Shown here: piece by piece, positions 3,788-16,884 of the stretch | How positions within the stretch are numbered: position 1 is the first letter of the stretch | Layout: each line of letters starts with the position of its first letter | From: a virus | Taxonomy: Duplodnaviria; Caudoviricetes | Length of the DNA: 28,135 nucleotides | Virus record (IMG/VR): IMGVR_UViG_3300044731_001657 | Coordinates: 1 to 28,135 of that record | Reading direction: 5' to 3' (one strand) | Program-made: the position numbers and the translations under genes | Notes under the pieces: model-generated | Told to the model about the DNA's origin: nothing | The model's database searches: none | What the model saw: only the letters and a program-made list of their open reading frames with translations

Positions 3788-3933
3788 TTCTTGGCGAAGA
3801 GGCGCCGGCAGACCTCGAGGAGTGCGCCAGCAGGCAGGCACGGCGAAGTGCCGTAGTTGTCCGTGATCTGGGCGCCGCAGTGGCGAGCAACCATCTTCCA
3901 GAAGTTAATGTTGTCGATAGTGCGGTGGTTCAT
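3784..3933 (-). CDS. Small hypothetical protein (49 aa)
   Basis: MNHRTIDNINFWK...; ATGA overlaps at both ends. Confidence 0.6.
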   Translation of the reverse strand: MNHRTIDNINFWKMVARHCGAQITDNYGTSPCLPAGALLEVCRRLFAKK

Positions 3934-5117
3934 GGCTGGTGCTCCATCAGCTCGCCAACGAGAACTCTCCAAGCCCGCTCAACGGTGGGCACGCAGACTC
4001 CATTGCCGAGGAGTCGCAGCTCATCGGTGCGATTGTCTGTGGAGACGTGCAGGACGGCATCGTCCAGCCGATGGGTAAGCCCATCAGCGTCTCGACCCAG
4101 CGTGGGTTGAGTTTGCCGCTGCTCCGCTTCATGTCCTCCGGCAGCATCGACCTCGCTCCCGATCCGCCGTCCAAGCCGTGGCTGCCGCCGTTGCCGGTGC
4201 ATGAGGCTGGTGTCGGCCACATTCCATTGACCATCTCCGGCAAGTTCTGCCCTCGAGATTCCCATTGCTTGCAGGCTTCCGGTGTCGTTGCACCCTTGTG
4301 GTCGCAGGCATTGGGCGTTGCCAACCACAACCCTTGGCGGCTCCCAAGCGAACTGCTGCTCGCCGGGGCGGCTTGGCCATGGAGTTGCACCGCAATGGTC
4401 AGCTGTGTCCCGCATCCGTTGCCGTTGTAGCCCTTGGCCTTCATCGCTTCCTTGCGCTTGAGCCATGTCTCCGGCGACTCGCCGTCTTGTGAGACTTGGG
4501 CGTTGGGCGTTGGCCACCTCGCTACTGCGGCCCCAAGATTTGGGTTCACTCGATTGCCTTGGGTCGGCCCGGAATCTTTCCAGTCCCGCGCGTTTGTCGC
4601 GCGCCAAGATGAAAATCCTTTTCCTCTGGTGAGGCGCGCCGCACTCACTCGCGCTCGCCACGCACCACGTCGTTCGGTAACCCAGTCCTGCCAAGTCTTG
4701 CAGCACGTCGGGAAGCCCAAGGCTGATATGTCCCTCGACGTTTTCAGCGAAACAGACACTTGGTCGCATTGCAGCAATTCCGGCTGCGATAAACGGCCAG
4801 AGGTGTCTTGGGTCTTCGGCGCCGAGTCGCTTGCCGGCGGCACTGAATGGCTGGCACGGATAGCCGCCAGAGAGGATGTCCACGCGGCCGTGAAACTCGG
4901 CCCATGGGAAGGCTTTAAGATCCGTCCAGATAGGAGCTGGGTCCAAGAGTCCCGCTTCCATTTTAGAGACCAAGTTCGCGCAGGCGAAGGCTTCGATCTC
5001 ACTAAAAGCGATTGTGCGCAGGCTTGGGATTGCTCGTTTAAGTCCGAGATCAATGCCTCCGTATCCGGCACAAAGGCTGACGTGTGTAATGGGCGAGGTA
5101 GTATCCACATGGCTCAC
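3930..5117 (-). CDS. DNA (cytosine-5) methyltransferase, alpha-type polypeptide (motifs I-VIII and X)
   Basis: SLCAGYGG (I), GGYPCQPFS (IV), ENV (VI), HQRKRIF (VIII), LRLLGNGV (X); GTGA coupling to the upstream gene. Confidence 0.9.
   Translation of the reverse strand: MSHVDTTSPITHVSLCAGYGGIDLGLKRAIPSLRTIAFSEIEAFACANLVSKMEAGLLDPAPIWTDLKAFPWAEFHGRVDILSGGYPCQPFSAAGKRLGAEDPRHLWPFIAAGIAAMRPSVCFAENVEGHISLGLPDVLQDLAGLGYRTTWCVASASECGAPHQRKRIFILARDKRAGLERFRADPRQSSEPKSWGRSSEVANAQRPSLTRRRVAGDMAQAQGSDEGQGLQRQRMRDTADHCGATPWPSRPGEQQFAWEPPRVVVGNAQCLRPQGCNDTGSLQAMGISRAELAGDGQWNVADTSLMHRQRRQPRLGRRIGSEVDAAGGHEAEQRQTQPTLGRDADGLTHRLDDAVLHVSTDNRTDELRLLGNGVCVPTVERAWRVLVGELMEHQP
3947..5110 (-). CDS. Nested +1-frame ORF: putative methyltransferase beta polypeptide (TRD-like W-x-T-P modules and motif IX)
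   Basis: 387 open codons wholly inside the MTase gene; WPTP-type modules and LNPRWVETLMGLPIGWT (motif IX-like) at 4061-4111. The true start may be internal. Confidence 0.7.
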   Translation of the reverse strand: MWILPRPLHTSAFVPDTEALISDLNEQSQACAQSLLVRSKPSPARTWSLKWKRDSWTQLLSGRILKPSHGPSFTAAWTSSLAAIRASHSVPPASDSAPKTQDTSGRLSQPELLQCDQVSVSLKTSRDISALGFPTCCKTWQDWVTERRGAWRARVSAARLTRGKGFSSWRATNARDWKDSGPTQGNRVNPNLGAAVARWPTPNAQVSQDGESPETWLKRKEAMKAKGYNGNGCGTQLTIAVQLHGQAAPASSSSLGSRQGLWLATPNACDHKGATTPEACKQWESRGQNLPEMVNGMWPTPASCTGNGGSHGLDGGSGARSMLPEDMKRSSGKLNPRWVETLMGLPIGWTMPSCTSPQTIAPMSCDSSAMESACPPLSGLGEFSLAS

Positions 5118-7205: not shown

Positions 7206-7472
7206 ATGATTCCGATGACCAAGCGAGTGTCCCGCAAGCGGCTTGAGGCAGCGTGGTTTGCGCTGGGTCCGCCAGACTATGTGCAGCCAGACAAAACGCA
7301 GCGTTTGTTTTGGGCCATTTGGAATGACCCGCCGTATCCCAATCACTTAGACTTTGAGACCTACGAAGAATACGCCGCAGCCATAAGGGAGTGTGAGCGA
7401 AACGTGGTAAGGCTTTATTCTGATCCAGACGAAGAGTCCCAGACGGACGCAACATCCACCTCGCGGTCGTAG
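7206..7472 (+). CDS. Hypothetical protein, convergent with and overlapping the integrase 3' end
   Basis: 88-aa ORF (MIPMTKRVSRKRLEAAWF...) directly after a promoter; AT-richer than its neighbours. Confidence 0.55.
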   Translation: MIPMTKRVSRKRLEAAWFALGPPDYVQPDKTQRLFWAIWNDPPYPNHLDFETYEEYAAAIRECERNVVRLYSDPDEESQTDATSTSRS

Positions 7473-8527
7473 ACAGCGTAAAATCTGGCCGTTGTCTGCG
7501 GGCTTGCGTGGCCGAGCATGTGCTGCACTACGCTGATCTTTCCGGTGGCGTTGAGCATGTCGGAGCCAGCTTGGCGGCGCAGCTCGTAAGCTGCCGAGCG
7601 CCGGTCTGGCAGGAACTCGCGCACCCAGAGGTTAAAGTTGCGCTCCATGAATTTCATTCGCATGCCGGCGGTGCGACCGACAACCATGAAGTCGTCCGCG
7701 GCGAGCAACTCTGGCACCATCCATTGCGGCAGCGCCATGACCCGCCCGCGCTTGTGGCCAGTCTTGAGCGTCAGCTCCTCGTTGGGCCGCTCAATGAGCA
7801 CCATGACGTGCCGGTCGCCGCGGTCTTCGATCCAGCCCTTGCGGCAGTAGGCGACCTCCTTGGGCGTCATGCCCAGGTAGCGGGTCAGCAGGAAGGCGCG
7901 CCGGGTGGCGCCGCCGATGGCCTTGCTGCTGGCGTCCATCTTTTCCAGCGTCTCCGGCGGGATACGGATAAAGGTTGAGACCGGCGCCTTCATGCCCTTG
8001 GTTGCCGCGGCAAACTTGGCGATGGAGTCCGGCAGCTCAAAGCCCTCCCAGTCTAAGGGATGGGCGAAGATGGCCCGCGCCGACGCCAAGTTGGTGCGCA
8101 CGCTGTAGGCGCTGCCTTGAAACTTGGCGCGATACTTGGAGACCAGTGCTGGCGAGATGACCGAGAGCGGCTTGGCCCGCACAGCGTCATTGTCGCCGCC
8201 GAGTGCGGTGCGCAGGACGATGAGGAGGCAATTGACATTGGCGTTGCGGCTGGCGATTTTGCTGCCCTGCAAATAATGATTGATAGCCTTGCCAACCGGG
8301 AGCGCCGTGGCGCGCATAGCGTGGTCCTTGAGAGCGGTCACGCCTTTGGTCGCCGTGTCATTGAGGATCGCCTTGGCTTTCACCTTGGCCAGCTCGAGGC
8401 TCTCGGTGCCAAGCGAGACCCGCTGCCGCTTGCGGATGCCTGGGTTGTAGAACTTCAGCTGCCAGCGCGGCGAGGCCGCAGTGGTGTAAAGACGGCCAGA
8501 GATGCCGCTGCTTTTGATGGCGTGCAT
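7415..8527 (-). CDS. int: Tyrosine recombinase / phage integrase
   Basis: N-terminal arm-binding-like WQLKFY...RQRVSLGT...A; C-terminal YELRR...VQHMLGHASPQTTARFY; adjacent to a tRNA-derived att core. Confidence 0.9.
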   Translation of the reverse strand: MHAIKSSGISGRLYTTAASPRWQLKFYNPGIRKRQRVSLGTESLELAKVKAKAILNDTATKGVTALKDHAMRATALPVGKAINHYLQGSKIASRNANVNCLLIVLRTALGGDNDAVRAKPLSVISPALVSKYRAKFQGSAYSVRTNLASARAIFAHPLDWEGFELPDSIAKFAAATKGMKAPVSTFIRIPPETLEKMDASSKAIGGATRRAFLLTRYLGMTPKEVAYCRKGWIEDRGDRHVMVLIERPNEELTLKTGHKRGRVMALPQWMVPELLAADDFMVVGRTAGMRMKFMERNFNLWVREFLPDRRSAAYELRRQAGSDMLNATGKISVVQHMLGHASPQTTARFYAVYDREVDVASVWDSSSGSE

Positions 8528-8544: not shown

Positions 8545-8759
8545 TTTGGCAGTGGCGTCAAATAGTTTGGCAAAAGTTTGGCCGATTCTTTGGCAAAAAG
8601 ATGGGTATCTGTTAGACGTTGTTGGACGCTGTCAGCACCGCCCGTCAGAAGAATTTGATAGTTCGCCGGCATAGCACAGCGGTAGTGCACCTGATTTGTA
8701 AAGAGCTGCCCAGCCCTGTATTCATGCGGGTCTCCAGCCACTTTGGCCGATAGTTTGGC
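8545..8759. other. attP region: tRNA-derived core flanked by arm-type direct repeats
   Basis: TTTGGC at 8545, 8566, 8577, 8589 (left) and 8742, 8754 (right); ATAGTTTGGCA and TTTGGCCGAT occur on both sides; 10-bp-phased TGTTAG/TGTTGG/TGTCAG at 8610-8635. Confidence 0.8.
8665..8701 (+). tRNA. 5' half of tRNA-Thr(UGU), truncated after the anticodon loop (att core, not a complete tRNA)
   Basis: GCCGGCA-TA-GCAC-AGCGGTA-GTGC-A-CCTGA-TTTGTAA gives the acceptor 5' strand, a perfect D arm, the anticodon stem 5' strand and a loop with TGT. The expected TCAGG and T arm do not follow. Confidence 0.85.
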
Positions 8760-9429: not shown

Positions 9430-9460
9430 AAAATGAAAGGGCCAGCCGTAGCTGACCCTT
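9430..9460 (-). terminator. Rho-independent terminator of the virion operon (possibly bidirectional)
   Basis: Minus strand AAGGGTCAGC-TACG-GCTGGCCCTT-TCATTTT: 10-bp stem, C(UACG)G tetraloop, U-rich tail; lies between convergent genes. Confidence 0.8.
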
Positions 9461-9487: not shown

Positions 9488-12400
9488 TTATTTGTTACGC
9501 TTTGGCGCAACAAGTTTTTCTGGGAAAAATATCTGAAACGTCACCTCGCCGCCGTCTTCCAGCCGCAAGCCGTCATATCCTTGAGCGATAAGCTGGTCGG
9601 TCGAAAACTTATCTGTCTCATTCCAACCTCCTAGCTTGAGCTTCTTTTCATCCAGCAATCGCTCCACGATAGCGCCCTTGCCCGTAGCTGCAACATTGCC
9701 CGACTCAATCGAGCTTTTGTCCGTTGTAAACCAAATGGTGCCATCTGCTGCGCTACTTACGTCAAAACCGGCCTTTGCTATTACCTTAGCCGCCTGCGCG
9801 CTTGTGCCGTGGTATATGCGAGTCATCTGCGAGGATGCTACTGTGTCTCTGCTGCTTACGCCACCATCCGGCATCGCCTGCCCACGCCTCTGCAACGCCC
9901 GCTGCAACTGCGGATCTTCCTGCCGTACGCCACGGCGCTCCAGCTCTGCGCTGATCGCCTCGTTGCGCCGGAGCAGCTCGCGGGTCTGTGCGGCGCCGCC
10001 ACGCACCGGACGGCCCTCACGCATGCCCAAGGTGGACAGCCCGAGGTAGCCTTGGTTCTCCTCGTATTGGCGCAGGAGTTGGTCGGTGGGAGCGGACTCA
10101 AGGGAGTCCGGCATGGCCTGGGCGCGGATTCCTCGCTCAACCACAAGCTGCTCGCCCCTCTCTATTGCAGTATTTCGCAGCTCTGACAATTGTGCCTGCG
10201 TGATGTTTTTACCATCAGCATACAACTTGCCGGACTCCCTTGCGTTTAGGCGAACAAATCCTAAGTCCATATAGTCAGCAGTGCTGATGGGAAATTTTCT
10301 TCCTTCCAAAATGCCCGCATGACCATGCGCGCCGACATTCAAGAACTTTCCGTCTGGCGTCATCCATGCGGTTTGCGTTGTCATGCGCGGCTGTGCTCCT
10401 CCTAGCCGCATAACAGCGTCTTCAATGATCTGCCCGCGCGCCCCCACATCCGGCATCCCCTGAGCCTCCCGCGGGATCTGCTGGGGCATGCGGTTGTTGT
10501 TGATCTTGTCGTAGTCGAAGGAAAGCCCCTCGCGGCCGGTCGGCGTGAGGTCGTTGTAGCGGTCGAGGCGGAAGCTGCGCACGCTGCCGCGCGGGTTGAG
10601 GTCGCTGAATAGCGGGTTGGCCTTGCGCTGCACGGCGGTGCCGGTGCCGATCAAGCCGTTGAGCATGTCCCGCTTGGCTTGTCCGATACCGGCCTCACCC
10701 GGCAGTCCGTTGCGATGGTTGCCGAGGTAGGTTCTGAGGTCCGCCTCAATCACCTGCATATCATTGTTAAAGATCCCCAGCTCGCCGTTGTTGATCGCCT
10801 TCATGGCAGACGCGCGGAAGGCGTTAAGATCCATGAGCACCGTCTTGAGGTGCTTGTTGCCCGTCAGCTCCCAGCCCACGAACGCCACCTCGCGCTGGAT
10901 CGCCCGGATGTCGCCTCGGTTGCGGACGCGGTAAACGCCGTCCTTGCCGTCGCCGATGGCGTTGTAGTCGGCGATGAACGTCATGCCGCGCTCGCGGCTG
11001 GCCTCAAGCACTCGGGCAAATTCTCGCATCCATTTGGGGAAGTGGACGAAGTGGTCGAACTGAGCTGGCAGTGTGGGGCCGCTGACAATCGTGCGCCCAG
11101 AGTCTGTCGTGCGCCGACCGAACTCCGTTGAGTTGGGAGCCAAGATGCGCGACGGGTTGTACATCGTGTTGGCTTGGGACGTGCGGGAGCGTTCGCGGGT
11201 GCGCACCTCGCCAGGACTGCGCCATTGCGTCTTGCCGGTCTCGTCCACATACAGAAACTCGTTGCCAACTTGGCCGCCCTTGTCCGGGTCTGGGCGCATC
11301 TTGGTGTGTGGCGAGCGGGCCGCGCTGTCAGGCGTGCCATCGACAGACACCTTGGTGCCGCGGGTCTCCCGCTTGCCGGCGTCCTCTAGTCCGGCCAGCA
11401 AATCATTGTAGGCGCGCACATGCTCGATCATCCGCTTGCGCAGCACCGGCGACTGGAAGAGCGGGTTGTCGCGGAACAGCACCGAAGGGTTGTCCAGCGG
11501 CTTGCCGGTCGTGCGGTCGAACTTGGCGCCCAGCACCTCCAGCACGCGCGCCGAGGTAGCCAGAGCGCTCTCCAGCACCTTGGGTCCGCCTGCGCGGATG
11601 CCGCGGAAGTCGATGCCCTTCGCCTCACCGGCAAACTGCTCGGCTGTTACCTCGTCCCTTGCCCAGTCGTAATCATTGCCGCCCCTTTCGCGGCTGCGCT
11701 GGTTGTATTCATCGATGCGGGCGTCGATCAGCGCATCGCGCTCGGCAGCCTCCACCGGCTTGCCTTTCATCACGTCCGACATGGTGCGCTTGCCGCTGCG
11801 CACGTCGGCAATCTCTTCCGGCGTCAGCGCTACGGCCCCTTCATGCGTGCCGAACATGATGTCGCCGTCAACGATCTGCGCCATGTATTCGCGCCCGCGC
11901 GCCTTGATACCGTCCTCGCCGTAGACCTGCGTGACGTAGTTGCGCATGTCAGTGCGGATGTCTCCGTCAAGGATGTCGCTGGTCAGGATTGCGTGGGCAA
12001 TTTCGTGCGGCATCGAGCGGCTCGGCGGCATGTAGTCCACGACCTGCTGACCGGCCTTGACCGTGTCGCCGTCATTGACCAGCAGTCGCCGTCCCTTGGG
12101 TGCAGCGATAAATTCCGTGCGGCCATCATTCCCGCGGACACGCACCTCGCGGACGCCATCGCCGCGGTCACGGACGCGCACCTTGCCATCCATTGAGGCT
12201 GGCTCGCCGACATTGATGAAGATACGCGCCGTGCCGTTGCTGGCCTTCTCGATGAACACACCAGCGCCGGTCTCGTTGCCCGTGGCCCGCACGTCCACAT
12301 TCGCGCGGTAGTCTGAGGCGCGTAGAGTCACAAAGTCTGTCTTGCCCGCCACCACACCCTGCATTCCGGCGATCTGGCCGAGGCGGTCACGTCCAAGGGA

Positions 12401-14110
12401 AATTAGAGCGGGCACATCGCCGTTCACCGCATGCACGTCGATCAGCATTCTGGCGATGTCGGCATCTTTGCGAGAGCTGCTACGCCCGAATGCACCGGCA
12501 AATGGTCCCGCAAAGGTGCCGAGCGTTGCGGCGCCACCAACAATGGCCCCCGCTTGCTCTGCGTCCGGCGCCAGCAAGGCGAACGGCGTAGACGCCAGCG
12601 TGGCCGCAATACCAGAAGACACGGCGTCATCCGCAAAGCGCACCGCCTGCGTCACGCCCGCGCCGTCAGCCAGTCGCGCCAGCTTCCGCGTGATCTCCGG
12701 GTTGTCGGGGTTTTTGGCCACACGGCCCAGCGTGCTTTCCACGCCATTGGCGTAGGGTCGCATGTAGGCGGCGTATTGTGGCGGCACGGTGCCGGTGCGC
12801 AGCAAATCATCAGCCGCCGCCTGACGCACGGCACCAATATTGCCGGCGCGCATCTCGCGCAGCACCATGGCGCCAGTGCCAGCGGCTTGGGAGGTCTTGC
12901 GGATCGTCCCGCCGACCAGCTTGTAGGCTGGCACAATACCGCTTACCGCTGCGACCGGCAGCAGCACGCTGTCCATGCCATCCGTATTGGCCGCCAGCAG
13001 ACCTGCGCCGCCGCTGACCGCAGCAAGCGAGGCCACCTGTTGCGTTTTGCTAAGTCCCGTCTTGTCGGTAACGCGCGCAGCGACCCTAGACCCAAAGTCT
13101 TCCATGCCGTCCGCAACTCCAGCCAAGCCGCGCTCAACTGCCGGTAACGGCATTCCAGTCACTCGAGACAGGCGGCGCAGCACGCGCAGCTTGGAGAATA
13201 TGCCGGCGCCCATTGGCAGTGCGTTGGTAATATCTAGGCCCATTGCCCCAATCGTTGACACCGCCTGCATGGGCTGCTGCCCCAAGACCGTTGTCTGCTC
13301 GTTGGGGAAGGTCATTGTCTTCCCGCCCATCGTGGCCTCAGTAATGTTGCCAGCGTGCGAGCGGGCGTAGCTGTTCTGCTGCAGATAGCGCTCGTAGTCC
13401 TGCTCCTTATCCGGGCCGAACGGCGTCTCCTCAAACACACCCTCGTCGCGCGCCTTGGCGATGGCCGCCATCACGTTGTCGCCATCGACTCTTTCGTTGC
13501 CAGTCTTGGGAACTGCGGCGGCGATTTCGCGCATCTTGGCGTCATTGGCGTTGCCGCGCTGGATGGTGTCGGCGACTTTGTTTTGCCCCCAATTAACAAG
13601 CTGCAGCAACTGCACGCCAGCCTTGCGGCCAATCTCCATGCCAGTGGCTAGGTTACGCGCCGCAAAACGATCTGGGCGGAACATGTTTTCAAACCAGTTT
13701 TCGCGCAGCTCTGTGCCGGCATCCATGCCGAGACTTAGGAGGTTGCCCGGGACATCCTCGGCGCCTTGAAAGAATCGCGCCACCGCATCATCCTGCTGCT
13801 GCCGGTGATCGTACAAGAGCGAGTGCTCCGTATTGGTCAGAATGCGCTGCGGGTCGCGGCTGGCGACCTCGAGGTCTTGGTAGAACTGCTGCTCTTCCTG
13901 CTCCGAGATAGGCTGCGCCGTTGCCGGATCAAACGGCTCATCCAGAGTCGCCGTCTTCCAGTCAAACTCCGTGTCGATATTGACCGGACCCTGCGTTGGG
14001 GCTGGCATTGACCGCTGGCCAAATGTGGTAGCGGTCAGAGTCGCGGAGGGTTTGTCCTCCTCAACCGGCTGCGCTGTCGTCCAATCGAAATCGGGGTCGG
14101 CTTGGGCCAT
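9488..14110 (-). CDS. Large internal virion (DNA-ejection) polyvalent protein with a zincin HExxH domain and C-terminal ADP-ribosyltransferase-like cassette
   Basis: 1540 aa, last gene of the virion operon; N-terminal FD(W/P)xTAQP repeats, Gly/Ala hydrophobic segments, HEIAH plus downstream DEVTAE, C-terminal IYHGTS...IWFTT...GYDG. Confidence 0.8.
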   Translation of the reverse strand: MAQADPDFDWTTAQPVEEDKPSATLTATTFGQRSMPAPTQGPVNIDTEFDWKTATLDEPFDPATAQPISEQEEQQFYQDLEVASRDPQRILTNTEHSLLYDHRQQQDDAVARFFQGAEDVPGNLLSLGMDAGTELRENWFENMFRPDRFAARNLATGMEIGRKAGVQLLQLVNWGQNKVADTIQRGNANDAKMREIAAAVPKTGNERVDGDNVMAAIAKARDEGVFEETPFGPDKEQDYERYLQQNSYARSHAGNITEATMGGKTMTFPNEQTTVLGQQPMQAVSTIGAMGLDITNALPMGAGIFSKLRVLRRLSRVTGMPLPAVERGLAGVADGMEDFGSRVAARVTDKTGLSKTQQVASLAAVSGGAGLLAANTDGMDSVLLPVAAVSGIVPAYKLVGGTIRKTSQAAGTGAMVLREMRAGNIGAVRQAAADDLLRTGTVPPQYAAYMRPYANGVESTLGRVAKNPDNPEITRKLARLADGAGVTQAVRFADDAVSSGIAATLASTPFALLAPDAEQAGAIVGGAATLGTFAGPFAGAFGRSSSRKDADIARMLIDVHAVNGDVPALISLGRDRLGQIAGMQGVVAGKTDFVTLRASDYRANVDVRATGNETGAGVFIEKASNGTARIFINVGEPASMDGKVRVRDRGDGVREVRVRGNDGRTEFIAAPKGRRLLVNDGDTVKAGQQVVDYMPPSRSMPHEIAHAILTSDILDGDIRTDMRNYVTQVYGEDGIKARGREYMAQIVDGDIMFGTHEGAVALTPEEIADVRSGKRTMSDVMKGKPVEAAERDALIDARIDEYNQRSRERGGNDYDWARDEVTAEQFAGEAKGIDFRGIRAGGPKVLESALATSARVLEVLGAKFDRTTGKPLDNPSVLFRDNPLFQSPVLRKRMIEHVRAYNDLLAGLEDAGKRETRGTKVSVDGTPDSAARSPHTKMRPDPDKGGQVGNEFLYVDETGKTQWRSPGEVRTRERSRTSQANTMYNPSRILAPNSTEFGRRTTDSGRTIVSGPTLPAQFDHFVHFPKWMREFARVLEASRERGMTFIADYNAIGDGKDGVYRVRNRGDIRAIQREVAFVGWELTGNKHLKTVLMDLNAFRASAMKAINNGELGIFNNDMQVIEADLRTYLGNHRNGLPGEAGIGQAKRDMLNGLIGTGTAVQRKANPLFSDLNPRGSVRSFRLDRYNDLTPTGREGLSFDYDKINNNRMPQQIPREAQGMPDVGARGQIIEDAVMRLGGAQPRMTTQTAWMTPDGKFLNVGAHGHAGILEGRKFPISTADYMDLGFVRLNARESGKLYADGKNITQAQLSELRNTAIERGEQLVVERGIRAQAMPDSLESAPTDQLLRQYEENQGYLGLSTLGMREGRPVRGGAAQTRELLRRNEAISAELERRGVRQEDPQLQRALQRRGQAMPDGGVSSRDTVASSQMTRIYHGTSAQAAKVIAKAGFDVSSAADGTIWFTTDKSSIESGNVAATGKGAIVERLLDEKKLKLGGWNETDKFSTDQLIAQGYDGLRLEDGGEVTFQIFFPEKLVAPKRNK
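9866..10462 (-). repeat. Three dispersed 15-bp junction repeats CAGG(C/G)(G/C)ATGCCGGA(T/C) encoding Q(A/G)MPD
   Basis: Copies at 9866-9880, 10106-10120 and 10448-10462, all in frame. Confidence 0.85.
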
Positions 14111-15763: not shown

Positions 15764-16054
15764 TTATTCCTCCGAGATTCCCGCCGCAGCCCGTGCCTCA
15801 AGGCACAGTTGTGATCCCGCCACAAACGCGCGGCAGGCGTTTGGTCGGTTGTTGTAAATTGAGCAAGAGACGCCGCATCCGACTTCGCCGGCCAGCGCCA
15901 CGCAGCGGTTGTTGGTCGTCTTCATCAAAGGGTAGTCGTCTCTAAGCATCCATTGCGGGATGCCAGCAGCGTCAGATCGGTCTCGTTGTAAGACTGGCCA
16001 GCTCCACTTGTGACTGCAGCATGCGCCACACCGTTGACAGTCGAATCGCTCCAT
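15764..16054 (-). CDS. YkgJ-family (CxxCxxCC) cysteine-cluster protein
   Basis: FDCQRCGACC...RCVAL...CSIYNNRPNACRAF...C; start ATG 16054. Confidence 0.85.
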   Translation of the reverse strand: MERFDCQRCGACCSHKWSWPVLQRDRSDAAGIPQWMLRDDYPLMKTTNNRCVALAGEVGCGVSCSIYNNRPNACRAFVAGSQLCLEARAAAGISEE

Positions 16055-16884
16055 GTCGGGCGGAAGCCCTGCGCGTCGCTCTGCAGGTCGATGTATGGTG
16101 CTAGATGGCTGATGTTGTTCGTCTCGCATTGATTCTTTGGGCAATAGACGGTGCCTCCGAGGTGCCGGTTCACGCAGTTCCAGCAGACAGGGTAGTAGTC
16201 GCTGTTCGCGCTCTTGTCCTTCCGGTGGCGCCACACGCCGTCCGCTTTCTCGTAGCGGGTTTCGTCGTTGGGCACGCCTTCGGCTTCCAAGTAATTCCAC
16301 ACGTCCGCATCGCTCCAGTGGCGCATGGGGTAAAATTGAGTCGGAATGCCGGCCTGCACCAAAACGTCCTGCGCAAGCGGCACATGGCCTTTGATGAGGT
16401 CCACATCGGCAGACTTTTGGCCGTGGAAGGCGGCATCCCACGGGAAGTTAAACGTGCCGGTCGGGCGCTTCAGAGCGTCCAGCCCGCACAGATAGCGTCC
16501 GCTGGCCAGCTCCTCCGGCTGCGGTTCTTCAGTGCCAAGGCAGAGTGACATGACCTTGTTCGGCGCCATTTCGTAAAACTTTACAAAGTCAAAACGCGGG
16601 CTGCCGGTTTCGATGTCGTGTCCATCGGTGAGGGCGTATCCGCTTGGAGCGTAGTCATACATCTCTAGGTCCCATTGCGCCGCCAGCCGGTCGCTGTGGA
16701 CATACCGAGTGCGGAACCGCGGTTCCCGCCACTGCACAACCGGCGTCTTGGCGCCGACCTTAAAGCGGATCATGTGCAGCATTGCTGTGCTGTCCTTGCC
16801 GCCACTCCAAAAAACGACAGGGTTGGTGCAGCCGTCCAGCCACAGCTCAACCTTACGACACGTCTCTGCGACTAGGTTTGTCAT
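15925..16884 (-). CDS. PAPS-reductase/FAD-synthetase-like PP-loop protein
   Basis: VVFWSGGKDS PP-loop, FHGQKSAD, YPMRHWSDADVWNYL; C-terminal CWNC...CPKNQC; no CysH ECG(L/I)H tail. Confidence 0.85.
   Translation of the reverse strand: MTNLVAETCRKVELWLDGCTNPVVFWSGGKDSTAMLHMIRFKVGAKTPVVQWREPRFRTRYVHSDRLAAQWDLEMYDYAPSGYALTDGHDIETGSPRFDFVKFYEMAPNKVMSLCLGTEEPQPEELASGRYLCGLDALKRPTGTFNFPWDAAFHGQKSADVDLIKGHVPLAQDVLVQAGIPTQFYPMRHWSDADVWNYLEAEGVPNDETRYEKADGVWRHRKDKSANSDYYPVCWNCVNRHLGGTVYCPKNQCETNNISHLAPYIDLQSDAQGFRPTWSDSTVNGVAHAAVTSGAGQSYNETDLTLLASRNGCLETTTL

Follow-up and report, generated by a model that had tools for sequence, protein, structure and literature searches.

How does a protein with one constant core come to carry a string of unrelated C-terminal modules, and do those modules come apart again? 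The question is raised by a gene in the IMG/VR virus record IMGVR_UViG_3300044731_001657 (Duplodnaviria; Caudoviricetes), of which positions 1 to 28,135 were analyzed here (the window). The gene encodes a polyvalent protein of 1540 amino acids (aa), whose tail is made up of three modules, or cassettes, each preceded by a copy of a short repeat. On balance, we favor the reading that cassettes are exchanged in frame behind a core that stays constant and contains a predicted zinc peptidase, and that the repeat would serve both as the homology for that exchange and as the place where the protein is cut by its own peptidase. The gene and its tail are laid out as follows.

9488..14110, minus strand: open reading frame (ORF) of the 1540-aa polyvalent protein, the last of a predicted virion/ejection module
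10484..10495, minus strand: core-terminal degenerate copy of the motif, N-R-M-P; across clades its middle residue mostly equals that of the tail spelling, and it is a crossover point in L060, L070 and L075
10448..10462, minus strand: junction 1, QGMPD, a pattern match; loose contig ends of lake runs at 10440-10447
10121..10447, minus strand: cassette 1, family F34, W-x-T-P-D-G...H...GFVRL, found in 2 of 120 proteins
10106..10120, minus strand: junction 2, QAMPD, a pattern match; loose contig ends at 10126
9881..10105, minus strand: cassette 2, family F1 (73-77 aa), the most frequent of the cassettes
9866..9880, minus strand: junction 3, QAMPD, a pattern match; loose contig ends at 9865 and 9887
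9488..9865, minus strand: cassette 3, family F64, probably ADP-ribosyltransferase (ART)-like
9437..9460, minus strand: conserved hairpin 3' of the stop codon; in 20 of the 42 loci that have a closed ORF, its first 10 bases occur no farther than 300 nt from the stop

The pattern CAGG[CG][CG]ATGCCGGA[TC] matches the window three times, always on the minus strand, in frame and in the tail of the 1540-aa ORF, and in the whole record only the tail region is matched. An earlier note on this DNA had described three tail modules that each begin at a copy; the pattern search finds these copies where that note put them, and its cassette coordinates are those given above. The shift in base composition that it reported (roughly 50, 68, and 50% GC for cassettes 1, 2, and 3) is also seen in the computed values of 0.54, 0.69, and 0.52, against 0.63 for the core, and GC at third codon positions follows suit (0.55, 0.80, and 0.54; core, 0.78). 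The note had spelled the junction Q(A/G)MPD. These core letters hold, but the motif is longer and more variable, reading R-[GA]-Q-[AGF]-[ML]-P-D in the window clade, and the NNNRMPQ that had been taken for the mere end of the core contains, in N-R-M-P, the degenerate copy listed above. When the codons of the whole ORF were shuffled, an in-frame triple of 15-mers sharing at least 12 bases appeared in 18 of 100 shuffles, so the repeat over 4.6 kb is not compelling by itself; in shuffles of the 340-codon tail, an equally alike triple appeared in 0 of 2000. The window alone makes a fair case for the repeat, and its relatives make a strong one.

These relatives come from a search with the last core domain, which yielded 176 proteins; the counts given here rest on the 120 of them that were listed. 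Tails were split at the motif (R)[GA]Q[AGF]MPD, with P0119 omitted as its core end was not matched. The 120 proteins display 89 architectures, built from 298 tail segments in 64 families with 0 to 6 segments per protein, a set that includes a few false splits (at an internal V-V-L-A-M-P-E) and some very short spacers. The window protein and 11 relatives that are 95-99% identical in the last core domain have between them 11 different tails. The motif has no match in the cores of the split proteins, while 290 of the 361 Met-Pro pairs in tails are MPD. Cassette starts can also be located by homology rather than by the motif, and an intact motif then lies upstream of 291 of 318 starts. Even distant cores, 35-38% and 31-34% identical, share the cassette pool and the motif. 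The earlier note had proposed comparing the C-termini of homologues, and the outcome is the one it foresaw: the number and identity of cassettes differ among near-identical cores, with breakpoints in or beside the repeat.

The order of cassettes within a tail follows a pattern of its own, as most families are either internal or terminal. Several families of 400-800 aa are almost always last. Family F1 (cassette 2 of the window), in contrast, occurs in 49 copies among the 120 proteins, at positions 1-4 and never at the end; this place in the string, together with its share of the segments (49 of 298), suggests a spacer or helper role. Two fixed start alleles of F1 exist: one is found in the first position and the other in later positions.

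The breakpoints fall at the motif on the DNA level as well. Where two genes share their upstream part, 159 of 182 pair types lose homology 8-15 nt past the A of the junction ATG; where they share their downstream part, homology sets in at -23 to 0 in 16 out of 32 pair types, at +25 in 11, which correspond to the two start alleles that cassette 2 has, and at -35 in 3, which correspond to the core-terminal copy. Pair types are not independent of one another. Breaks are also seen within single lake samples, which was a further check that the earlier note had suggested: in eight lake runs the loose contig ends listed above adjoin the three junctions, with others elsewhere, and in run X8 one contig joins the core straight to cassette 2, so that cassette 1 is skipped. 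These variants are contigs rather than reads, and run X1 may be the source of the window itself. The junction DNA is, moreover, of one form at unrelated cassette ends. When each of 32 upstream families is represented by a single junction, the motif has GGG at 11 of 18 Gly codons, CCG 26 times out of 29, and GAT 19 times out of 31, above the general tail usage of 0.15, 0.48, and 0.38 and the dipeptide-matched usage of 0.22, 0.35-0.59, and 0.30 (Fisher P of 1e-3, 2e-7 to 4e-3, and 2e-3, respectively); the bias in the junction Arg codon is not significant (P 0.1). A single DNA form at the ends of unrelated cassettes is what copying or recombination would give. Finally, the motif DNA occurs in 83 copies in tails and in 3 copies in 519 kb outside them (49 unique loci). 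Cassette exchange very probably occurs at the motif, and the earlier note's proposal of a recombination microhomology for in-frame shuffling is upheld by near-identical cores with different strings, by breakpoints in or beside the repeat, and by single-sample variants.

We envisage that co-infecting phages or prophages would recombine by ordinary short homology at the 15-25 bp junction or, by an alternative route, through one crossover at the junction and another at the conserved hairpin after the stop, with the result that cassettes could be gained, lost or replaced in frame. The hairpin is likely to act both as a terminator and as 3' homology for swaps of the terminal cassette. In record G001, which matches the window, genes for an exonuclease, a gp2.5-like single-stranded-DNA-annealing protein and a RusA-like resolvase stand side by side, and these may serve the exchange.

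A dedicated recombinase could be proposed in their place, since 1 kb downstream there is a tyrosine integrase gene (7415-8527), unbroken in four of the five relatives searched; it might shuffle cassettes at specific sites, as happens in integrons and shufflons. Those systems combine a dedicated recombinase with conserved sites and with cassettes that can be excised or inverted. Here, the features differ: in G003 the integrase is a broken remnant while a motif-joined array is present, the motif DNA varies at most positions, the cassettes are all direct and in frame, copies of the motif outside tails are as rare as given above, and no free or orphan cassette was found beside the gene at the 49 unique loci. 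Because the array coexists with a broken integrase and free cassettes are absent from these loci, the integrase is an unlikely agent, and we consider site-specific shuffling by it highly improbable. Short direct repeats (TTTGGCAAAA-like) at 8566-8605, just upstream of the integrase gene, are possibly arm-type sites of attP.

Is the motif, then, simply a crossover handle of 15-25 bp that recombination has spread, encoding a neutral linker? The rare codons common to unrelated cassette ends, the position of the breakpoints, and the existence of some motif-less fusions are all as this explanation would have them. On the other hand, junctions also differ by whole codons (GCG to TTT or TTC, ATG to CTG or TTG), changes that lower the likeness of the DNA and keep the peptide pattern, and junction variation is mostly synonymous or conservative, with M to L tolerated. 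The explanation fares worse still among distant cores, in which F-x-P-D/E persists across deep divergence with x changing from clade to clade. We find a role confined to DNA distinctly improbable, and selection on the motif at the protein level likely.

These distant-core spellings are the strongest sign of a peptide role. The survey of distant cores covered the 150 of 440 representatives that were listed, 24 of these proteins being covered in one of the scans, and clades were taken from a quick tree of 62 rows supported by the Shimodaira-Hasegawa-like approximate likelihood ratio test (SH-aLRT) only, with long branches flagged. The last residues of the core are themselves a copy of the motif (N-x-M-P, N-L-S-P or N-L-A-P), and the tail junctions follow suit. 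In the 35 proteins of the M-clade, tails contain 62 xMP and 4 FSP matches; in the nine of the S-clade (support of 100 in the quick tree) there are 28 FSP and no xMP; in the four of the A-clade, 3 FAP and no xMP. FRPE is found four times in P0207, and a second group of four proteins has [RY][FY]MP[AE]. Cassette family F2 displays the same change of spelling within one family, as it is bordered by FRPE in P0207, by FSPD in P0230 and P0240, by FMPA in P0227, and by AMPD or FMPD in the window clade. When F2 (P0001-P0244) is terminal it ends in G-Q-A-L-F and a short hydrophobic tail, and when it is internal G-Q-A-L-F runs on into MPD, SPK or RPE, so F2 carries the left half of the motif. The motif thus appears to be held at two levels, as DNA and as peptide.

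The same spellings bear on the possibility that the junction Met is an internal start codon from which nested C-terminal products are made. The junction codon is ATG in 70 of 80 cases and CTG or TTG in the remainder, and a GGAGG precedes the junction 1 ATG by 9-14 nt. Junctions 2 and 3, by contrast, are without a clear Shine-Dalgarno sequence at the usual spacing, the residues upstream of the junction Met are conserved as amino acids, and the clades that spell the motif FSPD, FAPA or FRPE have no start codon there. Internal starts are nearly excluded by these Met-less spellings, and we give them very little credence.

If the motif is read as a peptide, the obvious reader is the peptidase that the core itself is predicted to contain. 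The relevant parts of the core are the following.

11591..12430, minus strand: zincin-like metallopeptidase (MPTase) domain, aa 561-840, with three strands, the HExxH helix and a second helix with Glu; predicted structure, pLDDT 75.7
11993..12007, minus strand: HEIAH zinc-binding/catalytic motif, aa 702-706, from residue conservation
11651..11653, minus strand: predicted third zinc ligand Glu820, in the DEVTAE helix, Glu in 94 of 94 aligned cores
12032..12208, minus strand: optional barrel-sandwich insert in the peptidase, resembling an RNA polymerase beta-prime insert/jaw barrel (hmmsearch, VIA)
10511..11203, minus strand: last core domain, weakly WYL/Sm-like (VIA, weak)

HExxH is found in 113 of 121 close proteins, and the other eight are three N-terminal fragments and five proteins with EExxH. 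Among the 94 aligned cores, 77 have HExxH, 3 HExxxH, 10 HExxE and 4 EExxH, and the catalytic Glu is conserved, together with the third-ligand Glu, in all 94. Glu is another possible metal ligand. The lost His is always replaced by this residue, which fits a working enzyme; the same replacement means that the HExxE and EExxH cores provide no clean "dead protease" control. Considered as such a natural control, these cores show no clean coupling to loss of the motif: the EExxH proteins P0112, P0116, and P0118 have no tail motif, but they have a single cassette each.

Two other parts of the core deserve mention. Foldseek and VIA searches with the peptidase domain return lists filled by the barrel insert, which matches residues 1275-1329 of the Thermus thermophilus beta-prime subunit in hmmsearch (E 6e-7) and in VIA (Z 8.5, root-mean-square deviation (rmsd) 1.3, 57 aligned). 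The insert is present in some lineages and missing from P0050, P0100, and P0117, and could be a captured host domain. The last core domain is weakly similar in VIA to PafBC, CapW, BrxR and DriD (Z 5-6, 80-92 aligned, rmsd 2.9-4.0), and it is conceivable that it is a nucleic-acid sensor that gates processing. Its end, immediately ahead of the first junction, reads R-x-F-R-L-D-R.

Considering the spellings together with the invariant catalytic residues, we lean toward self-cleavage at the motif, which the earlier note had put forward as a further or alternative use of the repeat and which we find plausible. The core peptidase would cut at the motif before or after ejection, freeing each module, and the peptide would be conserved because it is cut there. 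Each core clade's peptidase may read its own spelling. More tentatively, the whole could be described as a combinatorial self-processing polyprotein with lineage-specific pairs of protease and site (AMPD, FSPD, FAPA, and FRPE). If so, a cassette that moves between lineages would need re-spelling at both ends.

Several observations weigh against this reading. The motif persists in most cores with HExxE or EExxH (P0182-P0193, P0115, P0119, and P0130), and these proteins either are active with Glu as a ligand or have a motif that is independent of the peptidase. No peptidase residue was found that clearly and cleanly tracks the spelling. FSP is not confined to tails, as cores contain it too (14 and 5 matches), and the spelling could partly reflect copying of the motif DNA within clades, as the S, A, and R clades were compared as peptides only. 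The greater variation at third than at first and second positions of junction codons speaks for a peptide role, but this comparison is biased toward peptide conservation because junctions were found by a peptide pattern. Of the 318 cassette starts located by homology, 17 are without the motif and 10 have a degenerate copy (with some double counts in both), so cassettes can be joined without the motif, although such fusions are few. Lastly, PMC5512222 notes that a domain of this kind is found in the N4 virion RNA polymerase, in ArdC and in TraC1, all of which are delivered without being cut.

Much of this suits a motif that is read and not cut by the protein's own peptidase, whether as a handle for docking, packaging or translocation (on the core, the capsid or the ejection channel) or as the site of another phage or host protease. 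A handle would account for peptide conservation and clade spelling equally well, and it is in keeping with the motif's retention in cores with altered zinc ligands and with the uncut delivery just described. The linkers around the motif are richer in P, A, S, G, Q, and R (0.55 versus 0.43), which would leave the motif exposed. Against this, a peptidase that keeps its catalytic Glu in every one of the 94 cores needs a substrate, and no separate head protease was found among the 11 ORFs scanned, which are part of a complete relative; a scaffold and a major capsid gene are there instead. We regard a handle, or a foreign protease, as rather unlikely and self-cleavage as the better account.

What the cassettes would deliver can be seen in part. 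Among 34 representative cassettes, Pfam finds ART-PolyVal in five (two above the cut-off), PRTase and C5 methylase domains, DUF7178 in two, and a weak GNAT, while most have no Pfam match. In the window, cassette 1 has no match in Pfam, PHROG or Atlas and belongs to no family known to them, and cassette 2 belongs to no known family in Pfam and PHROG scans. Cassette 3, which the earlier note had called ART-like, has no Pfam match of its own, yet there is a lead in Atlas (0.88 to a cluster with 22% ART-PolyVal) and its best non-self match in phmmer is the ART-PolyVal family F5 (E 0.0095); it is probably ART-like. Small ORFs of 61-79 aa overlap the stop codon of three terminal cassette families and move with the cassette across core lineages (carriers are L003, L017, L019, and L086; L018, L034, L055, L059, and L081; and L005, L061, and L065). 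They are candidate inhibitor, immunity or partner proteins; no such ORF follows cassette 3 of the window. As most cassettes sampled are without a Pfam or PHROG match, they form a pool of candidate early anti-defense and host-takeover enzymes.

The surroundings of the gene suggest how the protein travels. On its 5' side are a tail-fiber match, a match to a virion-structural/internal-virion PHROG, and three mid-sized ORFs without a family; on its 3' side are an HNH/endonuclease VII gene and then the tyrosine integrase. In the complete relative G005, terminase, scaffold and major capsid genes stand upstream in the same run, and the downstream order is the same. In both, the polyvalent gene is encoded with virion genes, as phage-type polyvalent proteins are. 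From this gene order and the family we infer that the phage packages this protein and ejects it along with its DNA, as the earlier note's "injected effectors" implied. No relatives were found among GTDB genomes or INPHARED phages, and the 24 listed sequencing runs in which the DNA occurs are metagenomes that come from lakes or are unlabelled.

Some neighboring genes are of separate interest. A PAPS-reductase-domain gene (PAPS, 3'-phosphoadenosine-5'-phosphosulfate; 15925-16884) and an overlapping Cys-rich ORF (15764-16441, minus strand) lie within the predicted run of ejection genes, and they are not at the same place in G005. Over the C5 methylase gene, two long ORFs of 395 and 387 aa, at 3930-5117 and 3947-5110 (minus strand), overlap in different frames; this is perhaps a frameshifted or split methylase. 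In G001, to the left of the window (L089:210-1801, minus strand), QueC-like, QueD-like and tRNA-guanine-transglycosylase-like genes suggest 7-deazaguanine DNA modification.

How does this family compare with systems already known? The window protein is a phage-type polyvalent protein of the class described in PMC5512222. It shares with that class the large multidomain phage protein, HExxH with a downstream Glu, and ART-PolyVal, C5 methylase-PRTase and weak GNAT cassettes; several unrelated effector-type domains per chain and a highly variable architecture are found here as well, and its structural neighbors in BFVD are LPD/ART-PolyVal proteins, with those that are named matching at E 3e-8 to 7e-4. 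The layout given there for the polyvalent MPTase, with an HExxH helix and a later Glu helix following three strands, is also that predicted for the core domain, and self-processing was predicted in that paper. A comparable virion protein, gp47 of phi24B (2811 aa), has LPD domains and a metallopeptidase, was detected in particles and was proposed as an ejection protein, although its authors assign the peptidase to peptidoglycan degradation (bioRxiv 10.64898/2026.04.10.717836). In the portion of that preprint available, no junction motif is described, and the likeness to the window family is by description only.

Outside phages, a close parallel is with the MARTX (multifunctional-autoprocessing repeats-in-toxin) proteins of Vibrio and relatives, whose effectors are varied by homologous recombination and freed at X-L-X by the cysteine protease domain (CPD) or at L-K-G by MCF (PMC6731672, in the part available). 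Both have a constant frame, an internal protease, varied effector modules and short linker motifs. The window family differs in being a phage protein with a predicted zinc rather than cysteine peptidase and a bacterial host, and in that release is here only predicted; Pfam finds no RTX/MARTX repeats or inositol hexakisphosphate (InsP6)-activated CPD on the 1540-aa protein. If the favored reading is true, the family would be a phage counterpart of MARTX processing. Polymorphic toxins, including the MuF and PVC-metallopeptidase types, likewise combine a constant 5' body with exchangeable 3' cassettes as far as the accessible text of PMC3482391 goes, and the terminal cassettes with a coupled small ORF resemble their toxin-immunity pairs; here, in contrast, up to six cassettes are joined in frame, internal cassettes are swapped too, and standalone cassettes were not encountered at the 49 unique loci. 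PMC11375127, considered as an analogue of cassette exchange, proved from its available part not to be one.

The earlier note had called this an undescribed system. The protein class and the idea of self-processing are published (PMC5512222), so that this description does not stand for the whole; it does stand for the junction motif, for which we found no published description, in a search that covered subscription literature thinly and with the reservation that the supplements of PMC5512222 could show motifs in alignments. The available part of that paper names neither a motif at the joints nor a cut site or a mechanism of exchange, and self-cutting of polyvalent proteins has been an open guess since 2017, without a site or an account of the fast change in architecture. 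Here, the joints are marked, the breakpoints are mapped and the spelling tracks the clade. What is added is therefore a set of 89 architectures with mapped breakpoints, DNA and peptide evidence, and clade-specific spellings, along with a rule for dividing giant polyvalent genes into natural units, the 64 cassette families. The family offers exact candidate sites, a mapped exchange point and natural variants of both site (four spellings) and peptidase (HExxH, HExxE, and EExxH), and the clade-specific spellings make a direct protease-site swap test possible.

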